A stretch of DNA of 64,000 nt, taken from the NCBI GenBank assembly GCA_964016885.1, contig OZ024741.1:68634001-68698000 (forward strand), read 5' to 3'. Source of the DNA: Eledone cirrhosa (lineage: Eukaryota). Below are positions 43,146 to 64,000 of the stretch, piece by piece; position 1 is the first letter of the stretch, and each line of letters begins with the position of its first letter. Under the pieces are notes generated by a model. The model saw only the letters and a list, made by a program, of their open reading frames with translations. It had not been told where the DNA came from and did not search any database. Made by a program: the position numbers and the translations under genes.

Positions 43146-43179
<34 letters not shown>

Positions 43180-43180
<1 letters not shown>

Positions 43181-46100
43181 TTTTCTTTATTAACCACAAG
43201 GGTTTACATAAAGTAGACATTAAGGACAGTACAGGACAATACAGGACGGTACAAATGGGCATTTCTGCGTGTAAAAAAACAGCGGATGTAATAAAATAAT
43301 AAAGAAAAATTCCCCAATAGGGGGGGGAGACTTCCGAGGGACATTTGTGGAGAAAGCCCATTAAAAGACCACAGTGACCCTGACCACCAGGGCAAGTGCC
43401 CTCTCCCAGTTTTCCACCTTTAATTTACAGACACATACTCAGAGAAGGCCCATTCATTCGGGCCATACTTGCTTCTCTCACCCATCTTTCAACAAAATGC
43501 TGGGAAGAGAGCACTTCCCTCTCTACCCTGATTTTCCTTTTCAAATGAAATTTGAAAAAGTTAATCAGGGCATCACCGAAGAGGTGAGTGCTCGTCTTCA
43601 ACCCTTTCAAACGTGTCCACCATACTATCTCTTTCGCCATGGCCACCAGACAGATAAAAACTGCCTGCCCTTCCCGGCTAAAGGAAGAGGGCGGGGCAAT
43701 CCTCACGATGGACTCAGCTGATAGCTGGATCCGGCCTACACGTGACAGCAGGTGTTCGACATAAACCCACAAGTCAGCAATGCTCGGACACTGGACGAGT
43801 GCGTGAAGGACAGTTTCGTCGGACATGCCCGGCTGACGGCACCTCCATGCCTGTAAAGTTTATCCCGAACTGGCAAAGCTCCTCGGTAGCACTGCCAGGC
43901 CAGGGATTTCTGGAAGTTGTCCATAGGCCCCGGCCCGAAAGTTCTTCCGAAGAGATTGGCTAGTTGATTTTCGTCGACGCCTAGAGTTTCCCCAAGTACG
44001 TCGTCGCTCTTCCCCTCCACTAATCCTCTATAGAACGCCAAGGTGGAGTTTCCACCGATCACATTGCCCGATTGGTCGAGGGCTGTGAGCGCCTGAAGAC
44101 ATTCCAGTCTCCAAGCGCTCCCTCTCGGTCTTCACTTGACCCAGGACTGCAGCTCCGTCAATGAGACGAGCTGGGGAAAGACGTGTCTAGCAACGGAGAC
44201 CACACCTGATCACCGTCGAGGAAGAGGTGGAGATGTCGTAGCCTGAGCTCGTGTCTGCGCATCATCAGCCACGGCATTCCCAGCCCTCCACGTAGCGGGT
44301 GTTAACAGCAGATGGACCGCCTGACCATCGGAGCGCGTCCCTTCCACAAAAAGCGAAAGAGCAAACGCTCCAGCGCAGTCAGGCGGAGCTTAGGATAAGG
44401 TACGACGGTCAGGCGGTAGTAGATGACGGACACGATATACGCGTTAGACATCTCCGCTCGACCTTTCAGGGATAGCTTCCTCTCGGCCCATTTCTGGGTG
44501 AGAGAAGCCACCCTGCTCGTCACCTCGTCCCAGTTTTTGTCCGTCTGGAGATCCGGACCAAACCAGACCCCGAGCAATTTAACTGGTCCGTCCGTCCAGC
44601 GCCTGACGACGCTGTTGGACGGCATGGACCTGCCTCTCCAGGTGCCGAGCTGCAGGCCCACTGACTTTTCCTACTTGATCATTGCTCCTGTCACCGCTTC
44701 GTATTCTCTTAGTGTAGTGCCGATCGCCTCGATGTGTTTGGTTTTCGACACCACTACGGTGACATCGTCCGATATATGCTGACACGGATCTTCCGCATTC
44801 TAGTTCGCGCGGGACGCCCCTCAACGTCTCCAGTTTGTGCAGTAATGGCTCGAGAGTCAATACGTACAAGAGGGACGAGAGGGGACATCCTTGGCGGACC
44901 GAGCAGATGATGTTGAACGGTTCCGAAAGGTGACCGTTCACTCTCACCACAGAGCAGATGTCGCTCTGCATAGCAGCGATCCAGCCTCTGAAGGCGGGCC
45001 CAAACCCAGCCGCCCTCAGGACTGCCGCTAGGTAACGATGGTCCACCCTATCGAAAGCTTTCGACTGATCTAAATTTAACAACGACCCACCCGTGCCAGG
45101 TTCCATAGATACCCTCTCTACGATGTATCGCATGAGGTGGAGGTTGTCGTGGATGGATCTGTCGGGAATGGCGCATGTGTGTGCCTCTCCCACCAGACCA
45201 CCAACGACAAGCGCCAACCTCTTTGCTAGCACCTTGGCCAAAATCTTGAACTCTGTGTTTAGCAGAGTTATGGGCCTAAAATTATCTATGTTATCCCTCT
45301 TGTTCGGATCCTTTCTCAGCAGCGCCACAGCTCCTCGGCTCACAGAGCTGGGAAAATCTCCCGTTCTGTTGCCAGTTGCAGTAGACGTCCGCCAAGAGGC
45401 CCCCGAACAAGTCTGGCATCTGTACGTAAAGTTAATAGGGCAGACCATCCAAACCAGGCGATTTACCCCTTGTGCAGCTAGTCATTGCCTCCCGTACTTC
45501 AGCGGCTGTTATCGGCTTTTCGCAACACTCCGCCTCAGTGGCCGAGAGCCACCGCAGTCCGTCGAGGTAGACACTAAAGCCCATCCCTCGATCCGGCCCG
45601 CCGCTACCCCCGAACAATCGAGGGAAGTGTCGCTGAAAAGCTTTACACATTTGCCCGGGATCGAGTAGCATGCGCCCGTCGTGGTCCACCAAAGACCGGA
45701 TCGTGGCTTTGTTGCCACGATGCGCCTCCGCCACTCGGGCCCATTGAACGGCTTTCGTCCCCTCGTGTCTGAGAGCACGCACCCTAGCTCTGACAACGCA
45801 GCCTTCGTGCTTTGCATTGAAGAATTGGTCAAGGGCCAATTTCGCCGCAAGTACGTCGGTCGCGATGCCTTTGCTAAGCGCCTCGTCTAATTTTCTAACT
45901 AATTCTCCCTTTGCTCTATTTTTCTCTATTGCTACTAAACCTAATGGACTCTATTCTAATTGCTCTTTTCAGAGCAAACTACCACTTGTTGTTGACGATG
46001 GCCCCCGTCAACGCCCGCTTAACTAGTTCGCTAATCCGGTCTCTGTAGGCCTTGCGCGCTGGTAAGGACGCGTTTAGCTTCCAGTAGCCGGGTCCTCATC

Positions 46101-48997
46101 TATGAAGCCTATCTAAGTCAAGTACACAGATCACGAATTTGTGGTCCGTGTAGCTGACTATCTTGAATTGTGGACAGCCTATGCTAGACCTATCTATTTC
46201 TTTACAAAATACTCTATCTAGATATGATCTGGATGACCCTATGCGATTTGTCCAAGTCCACATTGGCACATTCGGGAAATCCAGTCGGTACCTGTCAGAC
46301 AGTTCAAAACGCCTGAGCAGGTTGGTGAGACTCTTGCACCCTCCTCCCCTATCCGCTAATTCTACATAGTCTCAGCGTGCATCTAAGATACCGTTCCAGT
46401 CGCCCACTAACACTAAAGTGCGGGACGTTCCAAGAAAGGTCTCCAGACGCCGGAAGAAATCAGGCCGCCCTGCTCCTGTCGGGGCATAGACGGCCACTAG
46501 CCTGAAAGCTTGCCCGTCTCCGCTGGTCACGTTTAGCACCACCAACTTACCTTCTGGGTCCAGGAAGATGGCCCGTATGGCGAGATCCAAACCTCTCCGA
46601 AAAAGCACAGCAACCCCTCCCCCCGATCCAGGACGGCTGGGAGATGCGTACACATCGTAGCCGCCGAAGATCGCTGCGAAGGCCCGTGCTTCGGAGATTC
46701 TGGTCTCGCTGATGGCCACTACATCTATGTTTAGTGACCTAAGGTCGTTGAGCAGGTGGCCCTGCTTCCATGACGACCCCAAGCCACGCGCATTTATGCT
46801 GCCTATTCTGAGTGAGGTCATGTTGAAATGGAGTGGAAAAGATGGGAAAGACCACTTACCTTACTTCTCGTAGAGGAAGGATGGTTTGTCCATCCTTTTC
46901 ACTGCTTGTGGCCTCCTCCGGAAGGATGTCCTTATAAATCCTCCTGGAGAGTCTTTGTCGGAAGTCTCCGATGTCTTTGGGGAATTTTTGTTTTAGTGTC
47001 GTGTACGTTTTCTGTGTGATGCGAGTGATTTGTATGTGTGGAGGCGGTGTGAACTTTTGGGTTGTTGTGTAGTCTTTTTCTGTGATGCTGGTGTTGTGTT
47101 GCATGTAGTGTGATAATTGGTTGTTGTTCAAATTTAATGCTGTGTAGTGTGTATCGTTTTGGTTGTTTTGTTTTGTTTGCGTTTGTTGTGGGTTTGTTTC
47201 TGTTACGCTTTTTGGTGACTTTTGTGGTGTTGGTGATGGTGGTGTTGGGATTAATGATGGTGATGGTGTTGGTGTTTGTGGTGATGGGGTTGGTGATGCT
47301 GGTGTGGATGGTGGCATATCTGTCTTAACTTTCTTGTTCGATAATTTATTTGTTTCCCTCTGTATTTTGTTTTTGGAGGAGGAAGGAAGAGAATTTTTTC
47401 TTTTTTGGTTTTTTTTTTCTTTTTTCCTGATACTGTTTCCCACTCCTCGTCGTCACAATCTGTCTCCAGTTGCGATAAGCCGGGGACTGGAAAATCCTCC
47501 ACAGGCGTTGGTTTTGGTTGTGGCGTGGTGGATGGAGTAGGCGCTGGTGCTAGTTCTGGGGCGTTGGTGGTGGTGGTGTTGGTTTTGCTACTGCTGCTGG
47601 GGTTGTTGCTGTTACAGTTGCTTCTGTTGTTGCTGCTACAGTTTTTGCTGCTATTTCTGCTGCTGGTGGTGTTGATGGTTGAGTCACTGGGGTGGGTAAG
47701 AGAGGTGGCCTCAACCTTTTAGCCTGAGGGCAGAAAACCCTTAGGTAGGTTCCTTCACCACAAACGACACACCTAGGTCTTCTGCCCTCGACGATTACGG
47801 TGAGGTGGCTGCCGTCAGTGAGGTCTATTACCTCTGGGATCTCCTCAATGCTTTTATGGTCCACTTGGATCAGGAGCTCCATCCCAGATCCGGACCAGTT
47901 CTCCTGCTTTTCTTTTGCTATTTCTATTATTTTGGTGTTGGCCTCGATGCCGGCGAGGACGGCAGCCATTAGCCAGGGAATTTCGATGGCCGGTGGAACG
48001 TGGGTCACCCTGATCTTCACAAGTATCTGGCCACAATAGCTTGGGATGAGTGTGAAGTCGTCACTTCTTAATAGGGCCATTGAGTGTTCTCTGGCCTCCT
48101 GTGGTGTTTCAAAGCACACGTCCACGGTTCCATACTTCTGCCCACGTCTGATGTGGGGTTTTTTTGCCCACACATGTCCCAAAGCTTTTTGGATTTGGGA
48201 CTCAGATGCCCGTTCCACTCGGCGCGATTTTATGTTTATTGTCCGATAAGACACTGTGCATAGGCGACGTTGCTCCATTTTATTAGGGGGGGGGTGAGGC
48301 TGACCCTGTACCCATCTTTCTTTACCATTCCTTTGGCTTCGTCTAATTCTTCCTGAGTTACCTGGATCGCTTCGCACGTTTTTGCTACTCTGGCAAAACT
48401 CAGGGTAGTTTTCTTAATTTCATTGTTGCTGTTGTTAATATCGTTATTTTTCCTATTGTTAATTTTAGTTTCAGTTGTGGTGGTGGTGGCGTCAGTGGTG
48501 TTCGGTGTGGAAGAGTTCATTTTGGATGAATTCATTTCGATATCATGAGTTAATTTATTTTTTTTCTTTTGTTTCTGTTGTCGCTGTGGTGGTGGTGGTA
48601 GTGGTGGCTTTAACACCTGCAGTCATTGGTAATGGCGGGAAATGAACGTCTGCCTGAGACAAATTTAAAATATTGCTACTGCTTACAATTCCAGTGTTGG
48701 CAAACGTAGCAATGTTTACAATGGTGGTGTCGGTGTGAGGTGTTGGATTGTGAGGAAGGAGTGAATCTGAGTCATCCATTATTTTTCAAAGAAAAACATT
48801 TTTTGTTTGATAATTATAAAAAGTTTAAATTTTGGGCTCAAGGTCCCAATATTTTTGAGTGTCCTTTTCAGAAATCAATGTATGTGCACTTATATATAGT
48901 TAACAATAAAAATTTTCCATAAATTGCAATTTTAAATAACTGAAAATAACAAACCTTTGCGGAGCTCACGATGATACGATTTACTAGGTAGGTCGCC
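43180..48997 (-). mobile_element. Full-length decayed Tx1-clade (L1-like) element, copy A
   Basis: Colinear with 53764-59683 from 5' GGCGACCTAC to 3' AATAAAGAAA; ORF1 (~48779-46856) and ORF2 (46821-43425) are frameshifted; (AAT)n on both sides. Confidence 0.93.
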
Positions 48998-49015
48998 AAT
49001 AATAATAATAATAAT

Positions 49016-49894
49016 GATTTCTTTATTGGCCACAAGGGCTGATACCAAGAAAAACATTACAGACAGCACAGGACGGTACAGGACGGTACGATGTGGGTTT
49101 TGTTCGTATAAAGATTTTTATTATTTATACAAGAAACGAAAAAGAAAAAAAGACATAGAAACATATATATATAAACAATAAAAATGAAAATTCAAACAAT
49201 GAAAAATTCCCCAATAGGGGGGGAAACCTCCGAGGGTTACTCGTGGCGAAAACCACACAAAAGACCACGGCCACCCTGACCACCAGGGCAAGCGCCCTCT
49301 CTCAATTTTTTCCCATTCCTCAAACTACAGACGTATATTCAGAGCGGTCCCGTTCACTCGGACCATTCTCGCTACATTCACCCACCTTTCAACAAACTTG
49401 CTAGAAGGCAGCACTTGCCTCTCCACCCTGATTTTCCTCTTCAAGTGAAACTTGAAAAAGTTAATCAGGGATTCGCCGAAGAGGAAAGTGTCTGTCTTTA
49501 ACCCTTTTAACCTTGTCTACCACACAATCAGTTTCGCCATGGCCACCAGGCAGATGAAAACCGCCTACCCTTCCTCCTCGAAGGAAGACGGCGATACCAT
49601 CTGCACAATCGACTCAGTCGAAAACCGGATCGGTCTTACACGCGACAGCCACTGTTCGACATAGCTCCACAACGAGTGCGTGCACGACGGTTTCGTCGCT
49701 CTGCGCTCATCTCGGACAGGCTCGGCTGACGGCACTTTCGTGCCTGTAGAGCTTATCTCGAAAACAGGCAAAGCTCCCCGGTAGCACTGCCAGGCCAGTG
49801 ATTTCTGGAAGTTATCCATAGGCCCTGGGCTGAAAGTTCGGAAGAGAACAAACAGCTGATTTTCTTCGACGCCCAGGATCTCCCCGAGAACGTC
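49016..49894 (-). mobile_element. 3' fragment of a more diverged Tx1 subfamily
   Basis: MDNFQKSLAWQCYRGALPV; 3' UTR with CCCCTATTGGGGAAT and AATAAAGAAATCA followed by (TTA)n. Confidence 0.88.
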
Positions 49895-52800
49895 TAATAA
49901 AAAGAACGATTAATTATGACTCCAACAATAACACCAACAACAACACCAACAACAACGCCATCAATAACAACAGCAACAACAAAAATAACAGTGGTAAAGT
50001 CGAGAACGACAATAACAAAAATAACAGCGGTAAGGTCGAGAACGACAATAACAATGACAATAACAATAGCCACAACAACAATAATGGTAGGAACAGTATC
50101 AACAAAAACAACAATAATAACAACAGCCACAATAACAGTAACAACAGCAACAGTATCAACGAAAACAACAACAACACCACCAACAACTGTACCAATGAAA
50201 ACATCAACAATGACATTGATACCTGTAACAACGATCTCAGCACCACCAGTAAGACCAGTAGCGGCAGCAATAGTGGTGCTGCTGAAAAAGGGACCACTTC
50301 TTTTGCAGGTGTCGCCCGAAATATCGAGACAGTGTTAGTCACAGAAGAGGAGATGGCAGTCGCAAGGGCTATGGTGACAAGAAGGACAAGAAGCGCCAAT
50401 AGAGTCTCCCTGAAACCTCCACCCGATTTTTTCAAGGACCAGCAGCTACGGACGGTGACTTACCGCACCGTAAGCAAAATCTCACATCGGGTGGAGAGAG
50501 CCACGGAGGCTCAAATCCAAAAGGCCTTGAGGTGCGTCTGGGCACGCAAAACCCACATCACCCGAGGCAGAAAGTACGCCACAGTAGACGTACTTTTCGC
50601 CACCCCCGAGGAAGCAAAGTCTCACTCTTTGGAAACCGTAAAGAGTGAGGAGATAGTCTTGGTGCCCTCCTACTGCGGGCAGAAAATTGCGAGGGTCAAA
50701 GTGACCTAGGTCCCACCCGACGTGCCCATACCTTGGCTGGCCGCGTCTGTCCTTGCTGGAATCGAGAACAGGTCGTCCATGCTGTAAGTAGAGAAAATAG
50801 GGAGAGAGAATTGGTCAGGTATAGGAATGCAAATGCTTATACAAACTGACCAGGAATGTATCGACGCTATTCCCGATATCATAGACATCGAAGAAGGACT
50901 CCAACTCCCTATAAGCGTAGAAGGAAGACGGTCAAAATGTTATCTCTGTGGGTCGAAGGGTCACCTCAGGACCTTTTTCCCGCAGAAGACAGCGAAAAAG
51001 AAGGCTCCTCTCCTTCCAATACCTGGTCCGCTGCTACCAAGAGCAGAGCAGGCAACCAACGCAGAAGCCCCTTCCACGGTGAATAGGAGGGAAACGTCCG
51101 TGGCACACGTACCAAGGCCACGGACAACTAAAGCAGCAGTATCAGTGGCGGCAACACCAATAGCAACATTTGAAATAGCTACACCAGCAACAAAATTGCC
51201 GAAGAGGGCTCCACTACCACCACCAACAGCTGTGGAGCACATACCCCTCCCAGACGCCACGGAATCCGACATGGAGTTTGAGGTGGGAGTGAAGTGGCAA
51301 GAAAAAAACCCCTTAGATTCACCCTCCAAAAGCGAAGGCATACAAAAAGAGGTAAAGGCAGCAAGGAAACTTCAGCAACACCACCACCATCACCATCACC
51401 ACCACAAGCACCACTGACAACAACAACCACACCACCACCACCAGCATCACCAAAAACACCAACAACGCAAACAAAACACACACACCAAACAACAACAAGA
51501 AGAAAACAGTAACAAAATCACCCCTCCCCCCAAAAAGTACACAGCCATAAACATGGCAAAAAAAGAAATCATACAATATATAAAGCAGCACACAGACATC
51601 ACAAAAAAAAATACTACACCCCACCAACACCAAGAACTCTCCCGACAAACATAAGCATCATTGAAATCTCAATAGAACAGTACAAACCTTTAAAACAAAA
51701 ATTCCCCAACGCAGTTGGAGACTTCAGAGGGTCGGTTACCAAGAGGATATACTCTGACATCCTCTTGGAAACACCCATGACCAGCGAAAGGGACGGTTCT
51801 ACTGTCCCATCACCACACGATCAAGGTAAGTGACCCTTTCTCACTTGCCCCGTTTCTCAACCAACATGGCCGTACTCAGAATAGGCAGTATAAATGCACG
51901 TGGCCTGGGGTCATCTTGGAAGCAGGGTCACCTGCTCAACGACCTCAGGTCACTAAACATAGATGCGGTGGCCATCAGTGAGACCAGAATCTCCGAAGCA
52001 CAAGCCTTCGCACCGATCTTCGGCGGCTACGATGTATACGCATCTCCCAGCCGTCCAGGATCGGGGGGAGGGGTTGCCGTCCTTTTTCGGAGAGGCTTGG
52101 ATCTCGCCATACTGGCCATCTTCCTAGACCCAAAAGGTAAGTCGGTGGTGCTGGACGTGACCGGCAGCGAAGGCAATGCTTTCAGGCTAGTAGCCGTCTA
52201 CGCCCCAACAGGGACAGAACAGCAGATTTCTTAAGACGTCTAGAGACCTTTCTTGGAACGTCCCGCTCTTTAATGTTAGTGGGCGACTGGAACGGTATCT
52301 TGGATGCACGCTGGGATTATGTGGGGCTAATGGATAGGGGAGGAGGGTGAAAGAGCCTCACCAACCTGCTCAGACGTTTTGAACTGTCTGACAGGTATCG
52401 ACTGGATCACCCGAATGTGCCAATGTGGACATGGACAAACCGTATCGGGTCATCCAGATCGTATCTCGATAGGGTATTCTGCAGAGAACTAGATAAGGCT
52501 AGTATAAGTTGTCCACAATTTAAAATAGTCGACTACACAGACCACAAATTTGTGATCTGTGAGATCGACATAGGCAGACTTCATAGAGAAGGGCCTGGTT
52601 ACTGGAAGCTGAACGCATCTTTCCCGGCGCGCAAAGCCTACAGAGACCGGATTAGCGTATTAGTTAAGCGGGCGTTGACGGGAGCGGTCGTCAACAACAG
52701 GTGGTGGTTCGCCCTGAAAAGGGCAATTAAAGTAGAGTGGATTAGGTTTAGCAAAGGAGTAGTGATAGAGGAAAATAGAGTAGAGGGAGAGCTAGTCAGA

Positions 52801-53399
52801 AAGCTAGAAGAGGCGTTTAGGACAGGCATTGTAACCGACGTGCTTGTGGCGAGACTGGCACTCGACCAATTCTTCAACGCAAAACACGAAGGCTGCGTTG
52901 TCAGAGCTAGAGCGCGTGCTCTGAAACACGAGGGTACAAAAGCCGTCCAATGGGCCCGAGTGGACACATTTGAAAGGGCTGAAGACGAGCACTTACCTAT
53001 TCGGTGATGCCCTGATTAACTTTTTCAAATTTCATTTGAAAAGGAAAATCAGGGTAGAGAGGGAAGTGCTCTCTTCCCAGCATTTTGTTGAAAGATGGGT
53101 GAGAGAAGCAAGTATGACCCGTGTGAATTGGCCTACTCTGAGTATCTGTCTGTAAATTAAAGGTGGAAAACTGGGAGAGGGTACTTGCCCTGGTGGTCAG
53201 GGTCACTGTGACCTTTTAATGGGCTTTTTCCACAAATGTCCCTCGGAAGTCTCCCCCCTATTGGGGAATCTTTCATTGTTATTTTTTATTACAACCTCTG
53301 TTTTTTTTACACGCAGAAATGCCCATTTGTACCGTCCTGTATTGTCCTGTACTGTCCTTAATGTCTACTTTATGTAAACCCTTGTGGTTAATAAAAAAC

Positions 53400-53400: not shown

Positions 53401-53434
<34 letters not shown>

Positions 53435-53436
<2 letters not shown>

Positions 53437-53714
53437 AGTTGCATTTATCTTGCTTTATGTTCATACGAGTTATCACCAAGTCACAACCAGTGACCTCAAG
53501 AGACAACAAGGTCCGCCATGTTCAAGAAAGAACATACATATTCACACATGCATCTTTAGTGTTTAGACTTGTGATGTACTTATATTGACAGAATCTTCCT
53601 TAGTATATGGGCAGTTCCCATTAGTACTATCTTTTGTATTTCTCCTATACGCGGGTTTCCTGGGATTTGCGATAAGTAGTCATTAGACCCCTTAGGTATC
53701 ATTCCCAGAGCGCC
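53435..53714 (-). mobile_element. Short 5'-truncated R4/Dong-like 3' end
   Basis: Minus strand reads GALGMIPKG..IGEIQKIVLMGTAHILRKILSI-stop, homologous to the end of ORF 59825..61594; flanked by (TAA)n. Confidence 0.8.
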
Positions 53715-53763
<49 letters not shown>

Positions 53764-53971
53764 GGCGACCTACGTAGTAAATCGTATCATCGTGAGCTCC
53801 GCAAAGGTTTGTTATTTCCGTTTGTTAAAAATTGCCATTTATGGAAAATTTTATTGTTAACTGTTTATAAGCACACATACATTGTTTTCCGAAAAGGACA
53901 CCCAAAAAGATTGGGGCCTTGTGCCCAAAATTTTAACTTTTATTATTATCCAAAAATTTCTTTGAAAAAAA

Positions 53972-55969
53972 ATGGCTAATTCCCCTCTGCACGAAGCAGC
54001 TGAAAGCCTTCCTCACAAAATAACACCTCACACCGACACCACCATTGTAAATGTTACTACGTTTACCAACACAAAAAAATATAAGCAGTAGCAATATTTT
54101 AAATTTGTCTCAGGCAGACATTCATTTCCCGCCATTACCAATGACTGCAGGTGTTAAAGCCTCCACCACCACCACCACCGCGACAACCACCACCCCCACC
54201 ACCACCGCGACAACAGAAACAAAAGAAGAAAAAAATAAATTAACTCGTGATGTCGAAATGAAATCAAGCAAAATGGACTCTTCCGCACCAAAGACGAATG
54301 ACGTCACCACCACCACAACTGAAACAAAAATTAAGATTAACACAAATAACGATAGCAACAACAACAACAATGACATTATAAAACCGACCCTCAGTTTCGC
54401 CATCGTAGCAAAACAATTTGAAGCGTTCACGGTAACTCAAGAAGATTTAGAAAATGCCAAACAAATGGTAAAGAAAGATGGGTACAGGGTCAGCCTCACC
54501 CCCCCTCCCCACCTAATAAAATGGAACATCGGCGCCTGTGCACCGTGTCGTATAGAACAATAAATGTAAAATCGCGCCGAGTGGAACGGGCATCCGAGTC
54601 CCAAATCCAAAAAGCTTTGGGACATGTGTGGGCAAGAAAAACCCACATCAGACGTGGGCAAAAGTATGGAACCGTGGATGTGTTCTTTGAAACACCAGAG
54701 GAGGCTAGAGAATACTCCATGGCCCCATTAAAAAGTGACGACCTCACACTCGTCCCAAGCTATTGTGGCCAGAGACTCGTAAAGATCAGGGTTACCCACG
54801 TTCCACCGGCCATCGAAATTCCCTGGCTAATAGCGGCTGTCCTCGCCGGCATCGAAGCCAACGCGAAAATAATAGCAGTAGCAAAAGAAAAGCAGGAAAA
54901 CTGGTCCGGATCTGGGATGGAGCTCCTGATCCAAGCGGACCAAAAAAGCATTGAGGAGATCCCAGAGGTAATAGACCTCACTGACGGCAGCCACCTCACG
55001 GTAATTGTCGAGGGCAGAAGACCTAGGTGTGTCGTTTGTGGTGAAGGAACCCACCTAAGGGCTTTCTGCCCTCAGGCTAAAAGGTTGAGGCCACCTCTCC
55101 TACCCACCCCAGTGACACAACCATCAACACCACCAGTAGCAGAGATGGCAGCAACAACTGTAGCAGCAACAACAGAAGCAACTACAACAGCAACAACCCC
55201 AGCAACAGTAGCAAAACCAACACCACTACCACCACCAGCAAAACCAACACCACCACCACCCAACGCTTCAGAACTAGCACCAGCGCCTGCACCATCCACC
55301 ACACCACAACCAAAACTAACGGCTGTGGAGGATTTTCCACTCCCCGGCCTATCACAACTGGAGACAGATTGTGACGACGAGGAGTGGGAAACGATATCCG
55401 GAAAAAAAAAAAGAAACCAAAAAAGAAAAAATTCTCTTCCTTCCCCCTCCAAAAACAAAATACAGAGGGAAACAAATAAACTAGGAAACAAAAAAGTTAA
55501 GACAGATATGCCACCATCCACACCAGCACCACCAACCCCATCAACCAAAACACCAACACCATCACCATCATTATCCCCAGCACCACCATCACCTACACCA
55601 CAAAAGTCACCAAAATGCGAAACAGAAACAAACCCACAACAAACGCAAACAAAACAAAACAACCAAAACGATACACACTACACAGCATTAAATTTGAACA
55701 ACAAGCAATTATTACACTACATCCAACACAACACCAGCATCACAGAAAAAGACTACACAACAACCCCAAAATTCACACCACCTCCACACATACAAATCAC
55801 TCGCATCACACAGAAAACGTACATGACACTAAAACAAAAATTCCCCAAAGACATCGGAGACTTCCGACAAGCACTCTCCAGGAGGATTTATAAGGACATC
55901 CTTCCTGAGGAGGCCACAAGCAGTGAAAAGGATGGAAAAGCCGTCCTTACCCTACGAGAAGTAAGTTAG
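53972..55969 (+). pseudogene. Tx1 ORF1 (gag-like, single zinc knuckle) with two frame breaks at homopolymer runs (~54075, ~54505)
   Basis: LSFAIVAK, putative RRM-like block, CVVCGEGTHLRAFC (CX2CX4HX4C), Pro/Thr-rich region, EWETISGKKKR; 54521..55969 is open for 482 aa. Confidence 0.85.
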
Positions 55970-56002
55970 TGGTCTTTCCCATCTTTTCCACTCCTTTTCA
56001 AC

Positions 56003-59000
56003 ATGACCTCACTCAGAATAGGCAGCATAAATGCGCGTGGCTTGGGGTCGTCATGGAAGCAGGGCCACCTGCTCAACGACCTCAGGTCACTAAACATAGA
56101 TGTAGTGGCCATCAGCGAGACCAGAATCTCCGAAGCACGGGCCTTCGCACCGATCTTCGGCGGCTACGATGTGTACGCATCTCCCAGCCGTCCTGGATCG
56201 GGTGGAGGAGTTGCTGTGCTTTTTCGGAGAGGTTTGGATCTCGCCATACGGGCCATCTTCCTGGACGCAGAGGGTAAGCTGGTGGTGCTGGACGTGACCA
56301 GCGGAGACGGGCAAGCTTTCAGGCTAGTGGCCGTCTATGCCCCGACAGGAGCAGGGCGGCCTGATTTCTTCCGGCGTCTGGAGACCTTTCTTGGAACGTC
56401 CCGCTCTTTAGTGTTAGTGGGCGACTGGAACGGGATCTTAGATGCACGCTGGGACTGTGTGGGATTAGCGGATAGGGGTGGAGGGTGCAAGAGCCTCACC
56501 AACCTGCTCAGGCGTTTTGAACTGTCTGACAGGTACCGAATGGATTTCCCGAATGTGCCAATGTGGACTTGGACAAACCGCATAGGGTCATCCAGATCAT
56601 ATCTAGATAGAGTATTTTGTAGGGAAATAGATAGGTCTAGCATAGGCTGTCCACAATTCAAGATAGTCAGCTACACGGACCACAAATTCGTGACCTGTGT
56701 GCTTGACTTAGATAGGCTTCATAGACGAGGACCCGGCTACTGGAAGCTAAACGCGTCCTTACCAGCGCGCAAGGCCTACAGAGACCGGATTAGCGAACTA
56801 GTTAAGCGGGCGTTGACGGGGGCCATCGTCAACAACAAGTGGTGGTTTGCTTTGAAAAGAGCGATTAGAATAGAATCGATTAGGTTTAGTAAGGCTTTAG
56901 CAATAGAGAAAAATAGAGCAGAGGGAGAACTAGTTAGAAAATTAGACGAGGCGCTTAGCAAAGGCATTGCGACCGACGTGCTTGCGGCGAAATTGGCCCT
57001 TGACCAATTCTTCAATGCAAAGCACGAAGGCTGCGTTGTCAGAGCTAGGGTGCGTGCTCTCAGACACGAGGGGACGAAAGCCGTTCAATGGGCCCGAGTG
57101 GCGGAGGCGCGTCGTGGCAACAAAGCCACGATCCGGTCTTTGGTGGACCACGACGGGCGCATGCTACTCGATCCCGGGCAAATGTGTGAAGCTTTTCAGC
57201 GACACTTCGCTCAGCTGTTCGGGGGCAGCGGGGGGCCGGGTAGAGGGATGGACTTTAGTGTCTACCTCGACGGACTGCCGCGGCTCTCGGCCACTGAGGC
57301 GAAGTGTTGCGAAAAGCCGATAACAGCCGCTGAAGTAAGGGAGGCAATGACTGGCTGCACAAGGGGTAAATCGCCTGGTTTGGATGGTCTGCCCTATGAA
57401 CTTTACGTACAGATGCCAGACTTGTTCGGAGGCCTCTTGGCGGACGTCTACTGCAACTGGCAACAGAACGGGAGAATTCCCAGTTCTGTGAGCCGAGGAG
57501 CGGTGGCACTGCTGAGAAAGGATCCGAACAAGGGGGATAACATAGAAAATTTCCGGCCCATAACTCTGCTAAACACAGAGTTTAAGATTTTGGCCAAGGT
57601 GCTAGCAAAGAGGTTGGCGCTTGTCGTTGGTGGTCTGGTGGGAGAGGCGCAGACATGCGCCATTCCCGACAGATCCATCCACGACAACCTCCACCTCATG
57701 CGATACATCGTAGAGAGGGTAGCTAGGGAACCTGGCACGGGTGGGTCCTTGATCAATTTAGATCAGTCGAAAGCTTTCGATAGGGTGGACCATCGTTACC
57801 TAGCGGCAGTCCTGAGGGCGGCTGGCTTTGGGCCCGTCTTCAGAGGCTGGATCGCTGCCATGCACAGCGACATCTGCTCTGTGGTGAGAGTGAACGGTCA
57901 CCTGTCGGAACCGTTCAACATCATGCGCTCGGTCCGCCAAGGATATCCCCTCTCGTCCCTCTTGTACGTATTGACTCTCGAGCCATTACTGCACAAACTG
58001 GAGACGTTGAGGGGAGTCCCGCGCGAACTAGGATGCGGAAGATCCGTGTCAGCATATGCGGACGATGTCACCGTAGTGGTGTCGAACGCCAAACACATCG
58101 AGGCGATCGGCACTACACTAAGAGAATACGAAGCGGTGACAGGAGCAATGATCAACCAGGAAAAGTCAGTGGGCCTGCAGCTCGGCACCTGGAGAGGCAG
58201 GTCCATGCCGTCCAACAGCGTCGTCGGGCGCTGGACGGACGGACCGGTTAAATTGCTAGGGGTCTGGTTCGGTCCGGACCTCCAGACGGACAAAAACTGG
58301 GACGAGGTGACGAGCAGGGTGGCTTCTCTCACCCAGAAATGGGCGGAGAGGAAGCTATCCCTGAAAGGTCGAGCGGAGGTGGCTAACGCGTACATCGCGT
58401 CTGTCATCTGCTACCGCCTAACCGTCGTACCTTGTCCTAAGCCTCGCCTGACTGCGCTGGAGCGTTTGCTCTTTCGCTTTTTGTGGAAGGGACGTGCTCC
58501 GATGGTCAGGCGGTCCATCTGTTGTCAACACCCGCTACGTGGAGGGCTGGGCATGCCGTGGCTGATGATGCGCAGGCACGCGCTCAGGCTACGACATCTC
58601 CACCTCTTCCTCGACGGTGATCAGGTGTGGTCGCCGTTTGCTAGACGCGTTTTTCCCCAGCTCGTTTCCTTGACGGAGCTGCAGTCCTGGGTCAAGCGAA
58701 GACCGAGAGGGAGCGCCTGGAGACTGGAATGTCTTCAGGCGCTCACAGCCCTCGACCAATCGGGCAATGTGATCGGTGGAAACTCCACCTCGGCGTTCTA
58801 TAGAGGATTAGTGGAGGGGAAGAGCGACGACGTACTTGGGGAAACTCTAGGCGTCGACGAAAATCAACTAGCCAATCTCTTCGGAAGAACTTTCGGGCCA
58901 GGGCCTATGGACAACTTCCAGAAATCTCTGGCCTGGCAGTGCTACCGAGGAGCCTTGCCAGTTCGGGATAAACTCTACAGGCATGGAGGTGCCGTCAGCC

Positions 59001-59422
59001 GGGCATGTCCGAGATGCGCGCAGGGCGACGAAACCGTCCTGCACGCACTCGTCCAGTGTCCGAAAATTGCTGACTTGTGGGTTTATGTCGAACACCTGCT
59101 GTCGCGTTTAGGACGGATCCAGCTATCATCTGAGTCTATCGTGAGGATTGCCCCGCCCTCCTCCTTTAGCCGGGAAGGGCAGGCAGTTTTTATCTGTCTG
59201 GTGGCCATGGCGAAAGAGATAGTATGGTGGACACGTTTGAAAGGGCTGAAGACGAGCACTTACCTCTTCGGTGATGCTCTGATTGACTTTTTCAAATTTC
59301 ATTTGAAAAGGAAAATCAGAGTAGAGAAGGAAGTGCTCTCTTCCCAGCATTTTGTTGAAAGATGGGTGAGAGAAGCAAGAATGGCCCGAGTGAATGGGCC
59401 GACTCTGAGTATATATCTGTAA
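56003..59422 (+). CDS. Tx1 ORF2: APE endonuclease, reverse transcriptase, C-terminal CCHC; 1139 aa, intact
   Basis: INARGL, ISET, VYAP, GDWN, YLDR, TDH; KSPGLDG, FRPITLLN, LDQSKAFDRV, QGYPLS, YADD; CPRCAQGDETVLHALVQC. Confidence 0.96.
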   Translation: MTSLRIGSINARGLGSSWKQGHLLNDLRSLNIDVVAISETRISEARAFAPIFGGYDVYASPSRPGSGGGVAVLFRRGLDLAIRAIFLDAEGKLVVLDVTSGDGQAFRLVAVYAPTGAGRPDFFRRLETFLGTSRSLVLVGDWNGILDARWDCVGLADRGGGCKSLTNLLRRFELSDRYRMDFPNVPMWTWTNRIGSSRSYLDRVFCREIDRSSIGCPQFKIVSYTDHKFVTCVLDLDRLHRRGPGYWKLNASLPARKAYRDRISELVKRALTGAIVNNKWWFALKRAIRIESIRFSKALAIEKNRAEGELVRKLDEALSKGIATDVLAAKLALDQFFNAKHEGCVVRARVRALRHEGTKAVQWARVAEARRGNKATIRSLVDHDGRMLLDPGQMCEAFQRHFAQLFGGSGGPGRGMDFSVYLDGLPRLSATEAKCCEKPITAAEVREAMTGCTRGKSPGLDGLPYELYVQMPDLFGGLLADVYCNWQQNGRIPSSVSRGAVALLRKDPNKGDNIENFRPITLLNTEFKILAKVLAKRLALVVGGLVGEAQTCAIPDRSIHDNLHLMRYIVERVAREPGTGGSLINLDQSKAFDRVDHRYLAAVLRAAGFGPVFRGWIAAMHSDICSVVRVNGHLSEPFNIMRSVRQGYPLSSLLYVLTLEPLLHKLETLRGVPRELGCGRSVSAYADDVTVVVSNAKHIEAIGTTLREYEAVTGAMINQEKSVGLQLGTWRGRSMPSNSVVGRWTDGPVKLLGVWFGPDLQTDKNWDEVTSRVASLTQKWAERKLSLKGRAEVANAYIASVICYRLTVVPCPKPRLTALERLLFRFLWKGRAPMVRRSICCQHPLRGGLGMPWLMMRRHALRLRHLHLFLDGDQVWSPFARRVFPQLVSLTELQSWVKRRPRGSAWRLECLQALTALDQSGNVIGGNSTSAFYRGLVEGKSDDVLGETLGVDENQLANLFGRTFGPGPMDNFQKSLAWQCYRGALPVRDKLYRHGGAVSRACPRCAQGDETVLHALVQCPKIADLWVYVEHLLSRLGRIQLSSESIVRIAPPSSFSREGQAVFICLVAMAKEIVWWTRLKGLKTSTYLFGDALIDFFKFHLKRKIRVEKEVLSSQHFVERWVREARMARVNGPTLSIYL

Positions 59423-59682
59423 ACTAAAGGTGGAAAACTGGGAGAGGGCACTTGCCTTGGTGGTCAGGGTCATTGTGGCTTTTTACTGGGCTTTCTCCAC
59501 AAATGTCCCTCCGAAGTCTCCCCCCTATTGGGGAATTTTTCATTGTTATTTTCATTGTTATTTTTGTTACATCCTCTGTTTTTGTTTTTTTACACGCAGA
59601 AATGCCCATTTGTACCGTCCTGCATTGTCCTGCACTGTCCTTAATGTCTACTTTATGTAAACCCTTGTGGTTAATAAAGAAA

Positions 59683-59735
<53 letters not shown>

Positions 59736-59750
59736 GTTATTATTATTATT

Positions 59751-61630
59751 CCTTGAATCTCAGTCATTGATGTTGGTTAACTGGAAAGTCCGTTGGATTG
59801 AATATCAAGCCACTACCTGCAGCCTCAGATATTCAGGACGTATCGGAGGGTTCTTGCTGTTCCAAGCAAGCATGCCTTTTGAAGCGTTCCAAAAAGCGTG
59901 AAGGGGCCGATTTTCTTTAACCATCCCTGGAAACCTTTGGAGATAGTCCCCAGTGCGCCTATGACAATCGGGATCACTTTGACTTCATGGCAGTTCCAAA
60001 TCCTTTTCACCTCCCACTTTAGGTCCTGGTATCGGTTAATTTTCTCCCTCTCCTTCTCTTGCACTCTCGTGTCGAACGGGCAGGCCACATCCACAATCAG
60101 GCACGATCTTTTTTCTTTGTCCACAACCACCAGGTCAGGTCTATTGTGTTCCAGTTTTTTGTCCGTCTGTATCCTAAAATCCCACAGCACCTTCACCTGA
60201 CTGTTCTCCATCACTGCCTCTGGCCTATGCTCATACCATTTCTCAGAATGTGGTAGATTGTTTACTTTGCACAGGTGCCAGTGGATCACCCTGCCCATCA
60301 CATCGTGTCTCCAGCCCTTATAGTGGGTCTGGGCTAGGTGTTTACACTCGGACACAATGTGAGCCACAGTCTCCTCTCTCTCTCCACAGATCCTGCACAG
60401 TGGGCTAGCCTCCTCCTTGTAGATATGGTGCTTCAACCACTTCGTTTTGAGGGCCTGCTCCTGCGCAGCCATTAGCATTCCTTCTGTAGCCTTTTTGAGG
60501 TCTCCTCTTCTCAACCAGTTCCATGTCTGTGGATCTCTAAATTCAGTTTTCTCAAAGAAGGTACTATGAAGGGATTTTCCCTTAAGGCTGCTCTTCCTCC
60601 TTGATGTTATTTCCTCCTTGGACATCCCCTGGCCTACTGTCCCCTCCTTCAGTACAGTTCTGAGCATTGGCTCCTTACTATAGGTCACGTATTTGTATAG
60701 GTTGTTTTTCTCCATCTGAACACAGTCCTCTATGCTGATAAGACCTCTTCCACCCTCAGATCTCCTTAGATAGAGTCTATCGACATCACTCCTCTTGTGG
60801 AACATGTTGTAGATAGTCAATAGCTTCCTAGTCTTCCTATCCATTTCTTTTTGTTCAGCAACATTCCATCTCAGAATTCCCGCACTGTACCTAATAATAG
60901 ACACAGCTCGGGAATTTACTGCGCTTATGGCATTTCTGCTGTTCAGATGTGACTTCAATACGCTCCTTACTCTCCGAATGTATTCAGTTCTTAACAATTC
61001 CTTCATTTTTTTGTTCTTTATGCCATCAGCCTCCAGAACGCCCAAATACTTGTATCCTTCCTCAGAGTCAATTTCCTTTATCATCTCACCTGTTGGTATC
61101 TGGATCCCGTTACTTCTGCTCAACCTACCCCTCTTCATCACAATGACTCCACATTTACCAATACCAAACTGCATACATATATCACTGCTGAAAATACGGA
61201 CAGTGTCAACAAGCACATCCAACTCCTTCTCACTTTTCCCGAAGAGCTTAAGATCGTCCATGAAGAGGAGGTGATTGATGGTAAGCTCTCCCCTTCCCAA
61301 CTTGTATCCTGCTCTCACTTTTCGCAGCATAATGGTCAAGGGCATCAGGGCAAGGACAAACAACAGAGGGGACAGGCTATCTCCCTGGAAGATAACTCTC
61401 TTGATCTTCACGCTTCCCAAGGATACTCCAGTTGATGTCAACTCTGTCTCCCAGGACCCCATACTCCTGCCCAGCAACTGTCTGATGTTATCCGCCACCC
61501 TGAAGACCTCCAGGCTTTTGGTGATCCAGGAATGAGGCACCATGTCAAATGCCTTTCTGTAGTCTATCCATCCCATGGCAAGATCCCATGGCAAGATCTG
61601 TGTGTCTCCTCCTGCAATTCCCCATTACCA
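59751..61630 (-). mobile_element. 5'-truncated R4/Dong-clade non-LTR retrotransposon
   Basis: RT plus restriction-like endonuclease ORF, short 3' UTR, (TAA)n on both sides on its sense strand. Confidence 0.9.
59825..61594 (-). CDS. R4/Dong RT (partial), CCHC and RLE endonuclease; 589 aa open frame
   Basis: WIDYRKAFDMVPH, FQGDSLSP, LFMDDLKL, CRICGEREETVAHIVSEC, RHD, RPDLVVVD..DVACP..EKINRY. Confidence 0.92.
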   Translation of the reverse strand: MPWDLAMGWIDYRKAFDMVPHSWITKSLEVFRVADNIRQLLGRSMGSWETELTSTGVSLGSVKIKRVIFQGDSLSPLLFVLALMPLTIMLRKVRAGYKLGRGELTINHLLFMDDLKLFGKSEKELDVLVDTVRIFSSDICMQFGIGKCGVIVMKRGRLSRSNGIQIPTGEMIKEIDSEEGYKYLGVLEADGIKNKKMKELLRTEYIRRVRSVLKSHLNSRNAISAVNSRAVSIIRYSAGILRWNVAEQKEMDRKTRKLLTIYNMFHKRSDVDRLYLRRSEGGRGLISIEDCVQMEKNNLYKYVTYSKEPMLRTVLKEGTVGQGMSKEEITSRRKSSLKGKSLHSTFFEKTEFRDPQTWNWLRRGDLKKATEGMLMAAQEQALKTKWLKHHIYKEEASPLCRICGEREETVAHIVSECKHLAQTHYKGWRHDVMGRVIHWHLCKVNNLPHSEKWYEHRPEAVMENSQVKVLWDFRIQTDKKLEHNRPDLVVVDKEKRSCLIVDVACPFDTRVQEKEREKINRYQDLKWEVKRIWNCHEVKVIPIVIGALGTISKGFQGWLKKIGPFTLFGTLQKACLLGTARTLRYVLNI

Positions 61631-61658
61631 TATTATTATTATTATTATTATTATTATT

Positions 61659-64000
61659 GAATGCCATGGTTGACGGAGGCTCGGCTCTGTAAGGTATAGT
61701 AATTTTTAACCGTTAAAACAATTGTAAATTGTTTAAAACTTGAACCAAATTGTTGATAAAGACACCCTCCTCCTCGTGAGAGGGGTCTTTCTGTCCGTTA
61801 TTTGGCCCTTCGGGGCTAAATAACCAGTTATTGGGGTTTTGTACCCAATATTCATTTTAAACAAAAAACAACATGGCTACGAAAAAGAAATTTCATACGT
61901 CACTCCCACTCATTCCGTCTTCTTCTTCCTCAATCATCACTACAGCAGAGAGAAGATTGTCTCTCTCCCTCCCTTCTTTAAATGTGTCTCTCTCCCTCCC
62001 TTCTCTTTCGCAAGTGACGAAAGAAAAGAAAAGTCTCGTGCAAAGCGTGCAAAGTTTCTCCACGACGACGACGACAGCGACGAAACAGGTCTGCGGGAAA
62101 TACGAAAACCCAGTTCATTCGTCTGACGTCAGGAATAATAGCAGTAGCAGCCGTAATAACAACAGCAACAGTGACAATGAAAACAACAGTAGCAGCCGCA
62201 ACAGCATCACCAGCAGCATAAACAACAACAGCATTAGCAGCAGCAACACCAACAACAACCACAGCAACAGCGGCGGAGGCAGTAGTCGTAGTACCTGCAG
62301 CAACAACAAAAGTACCAGCAGCTCTGATGACAACAACAACAGCAGAGAAAAACCAATCTCATTTGCAGGTATTGCGAAAAACTTGGAAACAATCCTCATA
62401 ACAAATGAGGAATTAGAGGAAGCGAAGAAGATGGTTACAAAGAACGGACACCGAGCAATCTGCAAGGCAGCGGAAAAATTTTTCGAAACCCAAGAGCACT
62501 GTACGGTCACGTACCGTACAGTAAGTACAAAATCCCGTAGGGTGGAAAGAGCCACAGAGGCCCAAATACAAAAAGCCTTGGGGTCTGTGTGGCAGCGGAA
62601 AACGCACATCACCCGAGGCAAAAAATATGCCACCGTAGACGTACTTTTTGCCACACCCCAGGAGGCAAAGGCCCAATCAGTAGTGACCCTAAGGAGCGAG
62701 GAAATGGTGTTGGTGCCCTCCTACTGTGGGCAAAAAATTGTGAGGGTCAAACTAACCCACGTCCCCCCCGGAATGACCCCTTCTTGGCTGGCCGCGTCTG
62801 TCCTCGTCGGAATCGAGGACAAAACAACTGTACTGCAAGTACAGAAAAAAGTAAGAGAAGATTGGGTCGGCTCCTCCATTGAGATGCTAATCCAAACCAA
62901 CCAGGAGTGCATCGAAGCTATCCCGGATGTGATAGACTTCGATAACGGCACTCAACTGCCCATAAGTGTTGAGGGCAAACGCCCGAAATGCTTTCGCTGT
63001 GGATCGAAGACTCACCTCAGGGCCTTCTGCAACGAGAAGACCCTGAGAAAGGAGAAAACCCCCCTCCTTCCGAATCCGGCTCCACGGCTACCAGCAACAG
63101 GACAAGCGGCAACCAGGAACGATAGGTCCGTGGCACCCATACCCACTCCACGGAAATCAAAAACAGCAGCAGCAGTGGAAATATTAACAACAACAACAGC
63201 AATACCAAATGCAGCTGCAACAGAGACTCCAGTGCAAACATCACCAACAACAAGTGAAAGAGTGGAGCTGGTACCCCTCCCCGACCTCACAGAATCAGAC
63301 ATGGAGTGTGAGGTGGGAGAGGGATGGCAAAAGGTCGTAAGAAGGCACAAACGCAGAAGCAGCGCATCGTCGCCTTTGAAAAGGGAGGAAAGAAATGAGA
63401 AAAGGGTAAAGTCTACTGCAAAGAGACCCACAGCAGCAACAACACCAACACCATCACCACCCACACTAGCACCACCATCACCACCGCCAACAACACCTTT
63501 AACACCACCACCACAAGCACCAACATCGCAAACACAACAACAAAACACACACACCCAGCAACAACGACAAGAAAATAGTAGAACCACACCCCACCCCCAG
63601 AAAAACAAATGCACGGCAATAAATACACACAACAAGAAACTAATGACTTACATAATTGAACACACAGACATTTCACAACAGGACTACATAATACCAGCAC
63701 CAATCAAAACGCCAACTAACATAAGACTGCTAAAAATAGCACAGAAACAATACACAAATATTAAAACGAAATTCCCCAACGCAGTTGGTGATTTCAGGGA
63801 CCTAGGAGGAACCATCAATCGAAGAGTATACTCAGACATTCTCTTAGAAGAGCCGACGACCAGCCGAAGGGACGATTCAACGGTCCCTTCACCAGACGAT
63901 CAAGTGAAAAGGGATGTAAAAACCATCCCTCCTCTACCAAAAGTACGGTAAGTGGTCTTTCCCATCTTTTCCACTCTATTTTAAACATGACCTCACTCAG
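61659..64000 (+). mobile_element. 5' part of Tx1 copy D (distinct 5' UTR and ORF1), running off the window
   Basis: Starts right after (TAT)n; intact ORF1; ORF2 start ATGACCTCACTCAG at 63987. Confidence 0.92.
61873..63951 (+). CDS. Tx1 ORF1 gag-like nucleic-acid-binding protein; 692 aa, intact
   Basis: Ser/Asn-rich N-terminus, ISFAGIAK, RRVERATEAQIQKALG block shared with the other ORF1s, CFRCGSKTHLRAFC knuckle, WQKVVRRHKRR. Confidence 0.9.
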   Translation: MATKKKFHTSLPLIPSSSSSIITTAERRLSLSLPSLNVSLSLPSLSQVTKEKKSLVQSVQSFSTTTTTATKQVCGKYENPVHSSDVRNNSSSSRNNNSNSDNENNSSSRNSITSSINNNSISSSNTNNNHSNSGGGSSRSTCSNNKSTSSSDDNNNSREKPISFAGIAKNLETILITNEELEEAKKMVTKNGHRAICKAAEKFFETQEHCTVTYRTVSTKSRRVERATEAQIQKALGSVWQRKTHITRGKKYATVDVLFATPQEAKAQSVVTLRSEEMVLVPSYCGQKIVRVKLTHVPPGMTPSWLAASVLVGIEDKTTVLQVQKKVREDWVGSSIEMLIQTNQECIEAIPDVIDFDNGTQLPISVEGKRPKCFRCGSKTHLRAFCNEKTLRKEKTPLLPNPAPRLPATGQAATRNDRSVAPIPTPRKSKTAAAVEILTTTTAIPNAAATETPVQTSPTTSERVELVPLPDLTESDMECEVGEGWQKVVRRHKRRSSASSPLKREERNEKRVKSTAKRPTAATTPTPSPPTLAPPSPPPTTPLTPPPQAPTSQTQQQNTHTQQQRQENSRTTPHPQKNKCTAINTHNKKLMTYIIEHTDISQQDYIIPAPIKTPTNIRLLKIAQKQYTNIKTKFPNAVGDFRDLGGTINRRVYSDILLEEPTTSRRDDSTVPSPDDQVKRDVKTIPPLPKVR

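Follow-up and report, generated by a model that had tools for sequence, protein, structure and literature searches.

Is a microsatellite that flanks a retrotransposon the site it sought out, or a sequence that the element brought along? The question is raised by a window of 64,000 nucleotides from Eledone cirrhosa (contig OZ024741.1, positions 68,634,001 to 68,698,000; the window is the whole stretch analysed here), in which a stack of long interspersed nuclear elements (LINEs) begins at about 43 kb and has (ATT)n tracts at most of its boundaries. A sequence-only reading of this DNA had proposed a Tx1 lineage specific for (TTA)n. We consider it likely that a young L1/Tx1-like LINE family with an apurinic/apyrimidinic-type endonuclease (APE), below called the D/F family after two of its copies, inserts in a fixed orientation into (ATT)n, by means of a nick at ATAAT^R and priming of its (AUU)n-ended RNA on runs of the repeat.

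Elements seated in (ATT)n

The stack consists of four L1/Tx1-like copies (A to D) and a fifth (F) that is cut by the window end, together with two Dong/R4-like pieces, copy E and a fragment (Table 1). Only six (ATT/AAT) tracts of at least four units occur in the 64 kb, and they are placed exactly at element ends. The first 42.9 kb of the window hold no such tract, 38 dinucleotide tracts of at least 10 units and no L1/Tx1-like or Dong-like coding remnants; since tracts and elements are both absent from this part, their association in the stack is not due to chance. The L1/Tx1-like copies terminate in TTAATAAAGAAA[A/T]C (AATAAAGAAA[T/A]C) followed by ATT units, and have no poly(A). Read on their own strands, the L1/Tx1-like copies have (ATT)n at their ends, and the Dong/R4-like pieces, which lie in the opposite orientation, have (TAA)n.

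Much of the sequence-only reading is borne out by these observations. The six boundary tracts lie where it had placed them, the 3′ ends with their AATAAA run into ATT repeats, A, D and F, whose 5′ ends are complete, start directly after (TTA)n, and no copy sits in the more abundant dinucleotide repeats. Its picture of a seamless and uniform stack has to be amended, however. The boundary between B and C (~49895-49916), where a minus-strand and a plus-strand copy meet head-to-head, is without a trinucleotide tract, and C is internally broken at ~52960. The 279 bases between two of the tracts belong to a 5′-truncated Dong-like piece. This piece and E carry or match a restriction-like endonuclease (RLE) in the opposite orientation, so that most but not all copies are Tx1-like. 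The extent of 43149-64000 was also set too narrowly, as the stack continues with a short interspersed nuclear element (SINE) on the left and with at least 19 kb of similar material past the window end on the right.

The same arrangement recurs genome-wide. Two 5′ variants of the LINE family, named D-type and F-type, were followed by exact motif matches in the 3.0-Gb assembly. Four perfect ATT units stand directly upstream of the D-type 5′ end, in the register ATT|GGCGACC, in 1537 of 1692 matches, and in-register upstream of the F-type 5′ end in 2394 of 2505; taken together, 3931 of 4197 complete 5′ ends (91-96% by type) follow four perfect units in the single register ATT|G. We inspected 65 distinct complete copies (44 D-type, 21 F-type). 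For the 5′ motif we took the first 30 listed places, and for the 3′ motif the next 63, of which 60 were kept because the other three belonged to arrays already sampled; six copies occurred in both samples and were counted only once. All 65 have (ATT)n upstream, with a median of ~15 units, as do all six further copies picked for a non-tract 3′ flank. In 64 cases (duplicates removed, L084 not scored) we looked at what lies beyond the 5′ tract; it is the 3′ end of a further LINE copy 18 times and that of a SINE 7 times.

At the other end of the element, the LINE 3′-end motif has 6,580 matches. Of 90 junctions inspected, ATT comes first in 88, a tract follows in 84 and at least three perfect units in 72. 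Past the 3′ tract there usually comes another of these elements: a Dong-like one with its 3′ end in reverse complement, a LINE with a D-type or F-type 5′ end, or a SINE with its 5′ end. In F-type copies the 3′ tract tends to be longer than the 5′ tract. Complete copies therefore have the repeat on both sides and in one orientation, as is typical of microsatellite-specific LINEs. The proposal of an L1/Tx1-like lineage bound to (TTA)n in one orientation has thereby withstood the result that would have overturned it, a majority of non-TTA 5′ flanks among the genomic copies. Complete 5′ flanks turn out to be weaker proof of targeting than had been assumed, though, and while runs of the repeat are strongly preferred, the motif recognised appears to be the pentamer ATTAT.

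Table 1. Features of the stack, left to right, in window positions
Feature	Position	Strand	Description
SINE copy	42923-43139	minus	directly downstream (minus strand) of the repeat tail of A; duplication ATTAT[T/AA]ATATTGAGAGAG
(AAT)10 tract	43149-43179 (perfect run 43150-43179)		minus strand reads (ATT)n, the tail of A
Copy A	43180-48997	minus	full-length D-type LINE, 92% identical to D; ORF1 and ORF2 split into several frames
(AAT)6 tract	48998-49015		on the minus strand, 5′ flank of A and tail of B
Copy B	49016-49894	minus	3′ end of 879 bases, 5′-truncated, from a related subfamily; 76% identity with D positions 5066-5921
Copy C	49895-53399	plus	related subfamily; head-to-head with B
(ATT)11 tract	53401-53435 (perfect run 53402-53434)		tail of C
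Dong/R4-like fragment	53436-53714	minus	279 bases, 5′-truncated; protein 47% identical to the final 45 residues of E
(ATT)16 tract	53715-53763 (perfect run 53716-53763)		directly 5′ of D, register ATT|GGCGACC
Copy D	53764-59684	plus	LINE of 5,921 bases
D ORF1 frame	54422-55969	plus	includes a CX2CX4HX4C knuckle
D ORF2 frame	55970-59422	plus	1,150 codons
(ATT)17+4 tract	59685-59750		common to the 3′ ends of D (plus) and E (minus)
Copy E	59751-61630	minus	1,880 bases; 5′-truncated Dong/R4-like LINE with reverse transcriptase, CCHC motif and restriction-like endonuclease
(ATT)9 tract	61631-61658 (perfect run 61632-61658)		separates the truncated 5′ end of E from the complete 5′ end of F
Copy F	61659-64000	plus	F-type LINE, 5′ end GAATGCCATGG; continues 3,667 bases past the window

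The pentamer and the run

Lone pentamers are plentiful and tracts are rare. We counted 175 lone ATTAT or ATAAT pentamers in the 42.9 kb background, where tracts are absent, and four tracts of 4-6 units in 66.6 kb, tract coverage being ~0.1% of the sampled DNA. Nevertheless ~93% of LINE 3′ ends lie in tracts and ~1% at a lone pentamer, and a pattern search found only 52 places genome-wide at which a lone ATTAT comes directly after a LINE 3′ end, compared with the 6,580 matches to the 3′-end motif. Among the first 30 of these places are 22 independent truncated copies, 13 of which have duplications of 5-18 bases that start with ATTAT right after the last base of the element and are mostly preceded by C. 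One truncated copy in a satellite of ~47-base monomers can be compared with its empty neighbours (ctctcATTATatagctg), and has ATTAT on both sides and no long tail. The duplications of truncated LINE copies and of SINEs end at arbitrary sequences, hence the second nick is not sequence-specific. From such junctions we infer a first nick in the bottom strand at 5′-ATAAT^R, a position that on the top-strand map is immediately 5′ of ATTAT (Y^ATTAT). Not one of the eight full-length copies with unique outer flanks has a duplication of unique sequence outside its two tracts, which means that their targets were runs at least as long as a duplication. ATTAT is part of the target, and something more than the pentamer favours runs.

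Another short repeat, ending in ...GCACTGTACACAAT(A)ATTTC followed by (ATT)n, was noted in L014, L015, L126 and L144. Of the four short background tracts near SINE copies, it accounts for three (twice in direct orientation, once as the reverse complement).

Truncated copies, which lack the 5′ end of the element, differ from complete ones in a telling way. We assembled 26 independent truncated copies (L077, L081, L093, L118 and L040 were excluded as rearranged, internally deleted or of a third subfamily). Those that lie in tracts show all three registers, unlike the complete copies with their ATT|G. A fixed register in combination with an arbitrary second nick suggests that the repeat units belong to, or are paired by, the full-length cDNA, and the proximal 5′ repeat was probably brought in or annealed by it. 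The claim of targeting rests on the truncated copies, on the duplications and on the missing duplications outside the tracts.

A useful comparison is offered by the SINE family, which has 64,542 exact genome-wide matches to its 26-base head motif. Dispersed SINE copies show duplications of 7-17 bases starting with ATTA in 15 of 22 cases, and only one or two of the 22 lie in a tract. The SINE behaves as expected for pentamer targeting, unlike the LINE. Its first 45 bases (AGGGCGGTGGATTGGCAG...CCATGCT) also form a satellite of long tandem arrays, spaced at 45, 90 and 135 bases, which thus derives from the SINE head; such arrays were seen at L146-L153 (~1.67 and 1.98 Mb of contig C1) and are listed too near 7.2 and 10.32 Mb.

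A number of observations weigh against targeting of runs by the D/F family. The link between 5′ repeat and cDNA weakens the complete 5′ flanks as proof. At least three ATT units are found upstream of only 10 of the 26 truncated copies, which is far above the tract coverage and well below the 13 of 15 of the Dong-like family described in the next section. The other truncated copies follow short or degenerate ATT (3), other microsatellites (4) or unique DNA (4), directly abut a Dong-like element that is itself truncated (3), come after a same-orientation Dong-like element with its (AAT)n tail (1) or lie at the lone ATTAT of the satellite (1). No clear duplication is present in 9 of the 22 non-tract copies, and as ATTAT was demanded by the search pattern from which this set comes, the set establishes ATTAT as target sequence but does not tell how frequently it is used; that the ATT target is general follows from the 88 of 90 unselected 3′ junctions that start with ATT. 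Two complete F-type copies have unusually long duplications, of 55 bases (L187) and ~30 bases (L191). In these two the first nick apparently fell at non-ATTAT sites, inside the body of a SINE or the 3′ end of a further LINE, and the 5′ junction is in the next (ATT)n run downstream. In L187 the perfect 55-base duplication comprises the 3′ part of the SINE and (ATT)5, and the (ATT)14 upstream therefore holds nine extra units before the LINE 5′ end, in keeping with repeat units that come from the full-length cDNA. SINE and LINE may be partners, but the link by 3′-end similarity is weak: the score of B against the SINE was reached by 4 of 500 shuffles, and that of D was not above shuffles. Finally, motif counts based on exact matches are lower bounds and skewed to young copies, and the sampled loci (L-numbers) come mostly from the first 56 Mb of one contig.

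The alternative that survives best is that the target is ATTAT anywhere and that the long repeats come with the element, whose RNA would have (AUU)n both as leader and as tail; tract specificity would then be largely self-made. This would suit the full-length copies, which always have a one-register 5′ repeat, together with the 16 of 26 truncated copies that lack three or more upstream units, and it would account for an upstream tract in L187 that exceeds the duplicated target by nine units, for the F-type tendency to longer downstream tracts, and for a SINE whose ATTAT-initiated duplications lie at lone sites in ~20 of 22 copies. It fits poorly with the absence of duplicated unique sequence outside the tracts in all eight informative full-length copies, and with the 10 truncated copies that are preceded by (ATT)n, given that truncated copies cannot carry a leader and tracts cover so little of the DNA. 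Moreover, insertions with a visible duplication have no extra ATT between element end and duplication (a set selected for this), and about one third of the 5′ tracts form the tail of a LINE or SINE that lies upstream (the 18 and 7 of 64 mentioned above). We regard this alternative as improbable.

Returning to targeted insertion into runs, the endonuclease would nick the bottom strand at 5′-ATAAT^R, just 5′ of the top-strand ATTAT, and cDNA synthesis would begin with a primer ending in ...ATAAT-3′ that pairs to AUU repeats of the RNA. The predicted (AUU)n end of this RNA would be transcribed from the downstream tract, since AATAAA sits 8 bases before the element end (seen in D) and would place the RNA end inside that tract. 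The most economical idea of why runs would be preferred is that an RNA ending in (AUU)n pairs with the (AAT)n of the primer strand. At the 5′ side, the (AAT)n of a full-length cDNA, copied from an (AUU)n leader, may pair with the (ATT)n of the target, and joining through paired repeats would explain the fixed register of full-length copies.

A Dong-like partner and the growth of stacks

The second inhabitant of the repeat is of a different kind. The product of copy E aligns with solved R2 proteins over the reverse transcriptase (RT; 3.6e-16), over a CCHC stretch at residues 408-433 and over an endonuclease stretch at residues 488-560 (RPDLVV...VDV...K). On this basis E is an RLE-bearing LINE, and Dong/R4-like is used for it as a label that leaves room for R2. 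The E family has 9,620 genome-wide matches to a 22-base 3′ motif. An (AAT)n-type tract comes next in all 30 sampled 3′ ends, and (TAA)n lies upstream of 13 of 15 truncated 5′ ends, which adds to RT, CCHC motif and RLE the habit of having (TAA)n on both sides even when truncated. At L036 and L053, and at eight loci of the second sample, the sequence of the 279-base piece likewise comes after a LINE tail. Insertion into (TAA)n is a known habit of Dong (R4 clade), including DongBg of a snail, and a (TAA)n target is reported for Dong only (PMC3812793). Dong-R4 families are reported to be abundant in Octopus vulgaris, where both Dong-R4 and L1-Tx1 are listed as recently active (PMC13282606). E and the 279-base piece are of the same kind as Dong, and the D/F family targets the same double-stranded repeat from the other side: Dong has its restriction-like endonuclease after the RT and reads the repeat as (TAA)n, whereas the D/F family has an N-terminal APE endonuclease, reads (TTA)n and lies in the opposite orientation.

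Some loci show how closely the two families are intermingled. In L048 and L101, (AAT)n runs directly into (ATT)n on one strand, and L048 is an exception to the rule of opposite polarity in that a Dong-like element and a truncated LINE have the same orientation. In L100, L106 and L110, a truncated LINE and a truncated Dong-like element in reverse complement meet directly, the repeat being absent from the junction. Such head-to-head junctions, among which we count that of B and C, may have formed when two cDNAs primed on opposite strands of one break were joined. The geometry is consistent with this for the LINE/Dong pairs and inconsistent with it for B and C.

Each targeted insertion would leave an (ATT)n strand paired with an (AAT)n strand and so renew the landing site for both families, which would allow stacks and head-to-tail trains to grow. 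We entertain, more tentatively than the targeting itself and with rather more doubt than confidence, a wider scheme in which APE- and RLE-type LINEs share the two strands of one repeat, each insertion rebuilds both sites, and the repeat ends of the L1/Tx1-like elements allow integration of the cDNA by homology at both its 5′ and its 3′ end, so that a self-propagating "reef" with stacks of 20-40 kb and head-to-tail trains would arise.

How recent is this growth? Twelve complete F-type copies are 97.9-99.8% identical to each other in pairs, and the neighbours in a five-copy array are 98.8-99.4% identical. As neighbours are no closer to each other than dispersed copies, head-to-tail trains represent repeated insertions. 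Both open reading frames (ORFs) are open in 8 of 21 F-type copies and ORF2 in 13 of 21, and ORF2 is open in 1 of 19 D-type copies. The F-type is young, as judged from identity and intact frames. An array on contig C1 at 55.42-55.45 Mb was considered as a recent tandem duplication and rejected, neighbour identity being no higher than that of dispersed copies.

Duplication has nonetheless taken place at the right end of the stack. A unit of 7,984 bases at window positions 56017-64000, comprising ORF2 and 3′ end, (ATT)n, E, (ATT)9 and the 5′ part of F, is tandemly repeated in the next 7,983 bases (L154, 1-7983), with 100% identity for E, 99.96% for the 5′ part of F and 99.65% for the ORF2 part. 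It was probably produced by a recent unequal crossover between the near-identical ORF2 sequences of D and F. One could extend this to the whole stack and assume that it arose mainly by tandem or segmental duplication and unequal crossing-over of similar copies instead of by repeated targeted insertion, an assumption for which this 99.6-100% identical repeat speaks, as do the one common non-element flank of L115 and L116 and the fact that L057 and L058 are one insertion copied within the satellite. Yet the copies in the window differ in subfamily and orientation (A, B, C and D are 76-92% identical), array neighbours are no more alike than dispersed copies, and the outer flanks differ among thousands of copies. 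As the main origin of the stack, duplication therefore seems to us even somewhat less probable than targeting of the pentamer anywhere. The notion that reverse transcription simply adds the repeat as a 3′ tail, the family having no preferred target and the stack being chance nesting, can draw on the existence of LINEs with microsatellite tails and on the ATT units that end all copies here, but it is contradicted by the (ATT)n 5′ flank of 3931 of 4197 complete copies, by duplications that start with ATTAT on both sides and by the occupation of all (ATT/AAT) tracts in the window and of none of the 38 dinucleotide tracts, and we give it next to no credence.

Element anatomy and relation to known systems

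The ORF2 product of D contains an Exo_endo_phos domain, i.e. the APE endonuclease (residues 33-221, 8.9e-14), an RVT_1 domain, i.e. the RT (522-765, 6.8e-28), and zf-RVT (985-1037, 6.7e-08), as identified with Pfam. From about D position 2159 onwards, across the sampled loci L061-L120, D-type and F-type copies are 96-99% identical over ORF2 and 3′ end, and their 5′ untranslated regions (UTRs) are unrelated. In the stack itself the ORF1 proteins of F and D are 43% identical, as against 99.6% for the ORF2 and 3′ end of F past the window. A third type of ORF1 is present in C and in L081; C has 37% protein identity to D in ORF1 and 79% DNA identity at the start of ORF2, before its internal deletion leads from D position 3338 to 5464. 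These relationships suggest that the 5′ module was exchanged among D-type, F-type and third ORF1 lineages. For ORF1 no solved relative was found at E <= 1, and we disregarded weak Pfam matches to MBD, since they fall under the curated cut-off.

About 35 bases before the 3′ end lie 2-3 repeats of a 10-base unit GTCCTG[C/T]A[C/T]T (element strand; window positions 43223-43253, 49068-49089, 53328-53358 and 59617-59641), which is retained in the D/A/C subfamily and in the 76%-identical subfamily of B, and through which the 3′ UTR may be recognised. Rfam gave no match within 42600-64000 at E <= 0.1. Several other tandem arrays of the window are apart from the LINE stack: (TTTATT)57 at 10427-10766, a 30/60/188-base array at 13505-14585, a 28-base unit repeated 15 times at 15893-16299 and a 37-base unit repeated 35 times with 95% match at 41063-42369.

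By sequence comparison the family belongs to the L1 group, and we use the name L1/Tx1-like to span both the Tx1 clade and L1 proper. The order of N-terminal APE, RT and C-terminal zinc motif found in D is a feature of the Tx1 clade, but as it is common to L1 proper it does not separate the two; insertion into one repeat target in fixed orientation is a habit common in the Tx1 clade, if not strictly defining. The nearest named protein comes from an octopod (69% identity). The best one bearing a clade label is a coral "Transposon TX1 uncharacterized 149 kDa protein" with 306 bits, compared with 178 bits for human L1 ORF2p, the two values being from different searches. The Protein Atlas returned only generic endonuclease and RT clusters with no clade name. 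Human LINE-1 ORF2p (9k6g, 8uw3, 8sxt) is the closest solved relative, with E = 2e-51 over residues 15-866, i.e. endonuclease and RT. Human L1 nicks at a T^R step after an A/T-rich run (TTTT^A). It has a poly(A) end and inserts genome-wide, whereas the D/F family ends in ATT and is found almost only in (ATT)n.

Among Tx1-type elements, the microsatellite targets described in PMC4494074, for fishes and crocodilians, are (TC)n, (TTC)n, (TTCC)n and (TTTC)n. Kibi, Koshi and the crocodilian Tx1 families resemble the D/F family as two-ORF APE LINEs that lie in one orientation with the repeat on both sides of complete copies (PMC4494074; PMC3812793). They differ from it in that its target is (ATT)n in an octopod-like genome, that a minimal ATTAT site emerges from its duplications and that it is a candidate member of the Tx1 clade only.

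A closer parallel for the sharing of a repeat is provided by TRAS1 and SART1 of Bombyx mori, likewise two LINE families that insert in opposite ways into one repeat (PMC7265360). According to that paper, their endonucleases determine repeat targeting, ~10-12 bases are recognised and about three repeat units are needed, and repeat-like sequence of the RNA can pair with the nicked bottom strand. Both, however, are APE elements of the R1 clade with poly(A) and target (TTAGG)n (PMC7265360), whereas here two unrelated endonucleases meet at an interstitial trinucleotide and the D/F family has no poly(A). In the full-text literature searched, a search that lay apart from Repbase and Dfam, we found no L1/Tx1 element that targets (TTA)n or (TAA)n. 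While repeat-seeking is known for such LINEs, (TTA)n as an L1/Tx1 target appears to be undescribed in that literature.

Target-specific LINEs are natural models of how an endonuclease and an RNA template jointly choose an integration site, and they are starting points for tools of site-directed gene insertion. In this context the D/F family is attractive on three counts. Its motif, ATTAT, is very short and well defined, and runs of it are strongly preferred; its young copies number in the thousands, and many have open frames; and a built-in comparison exists in an unrelated family, of RLE type, to which the opposite strand of the same repeat serves as target. The family further contributes to an explanation of large blocks made only of transposable elements and of the many (ATT)n microsatellites in octopod genomes, the repeat annotation and assembly of which should allow for such (ATT)n-seated stacks.

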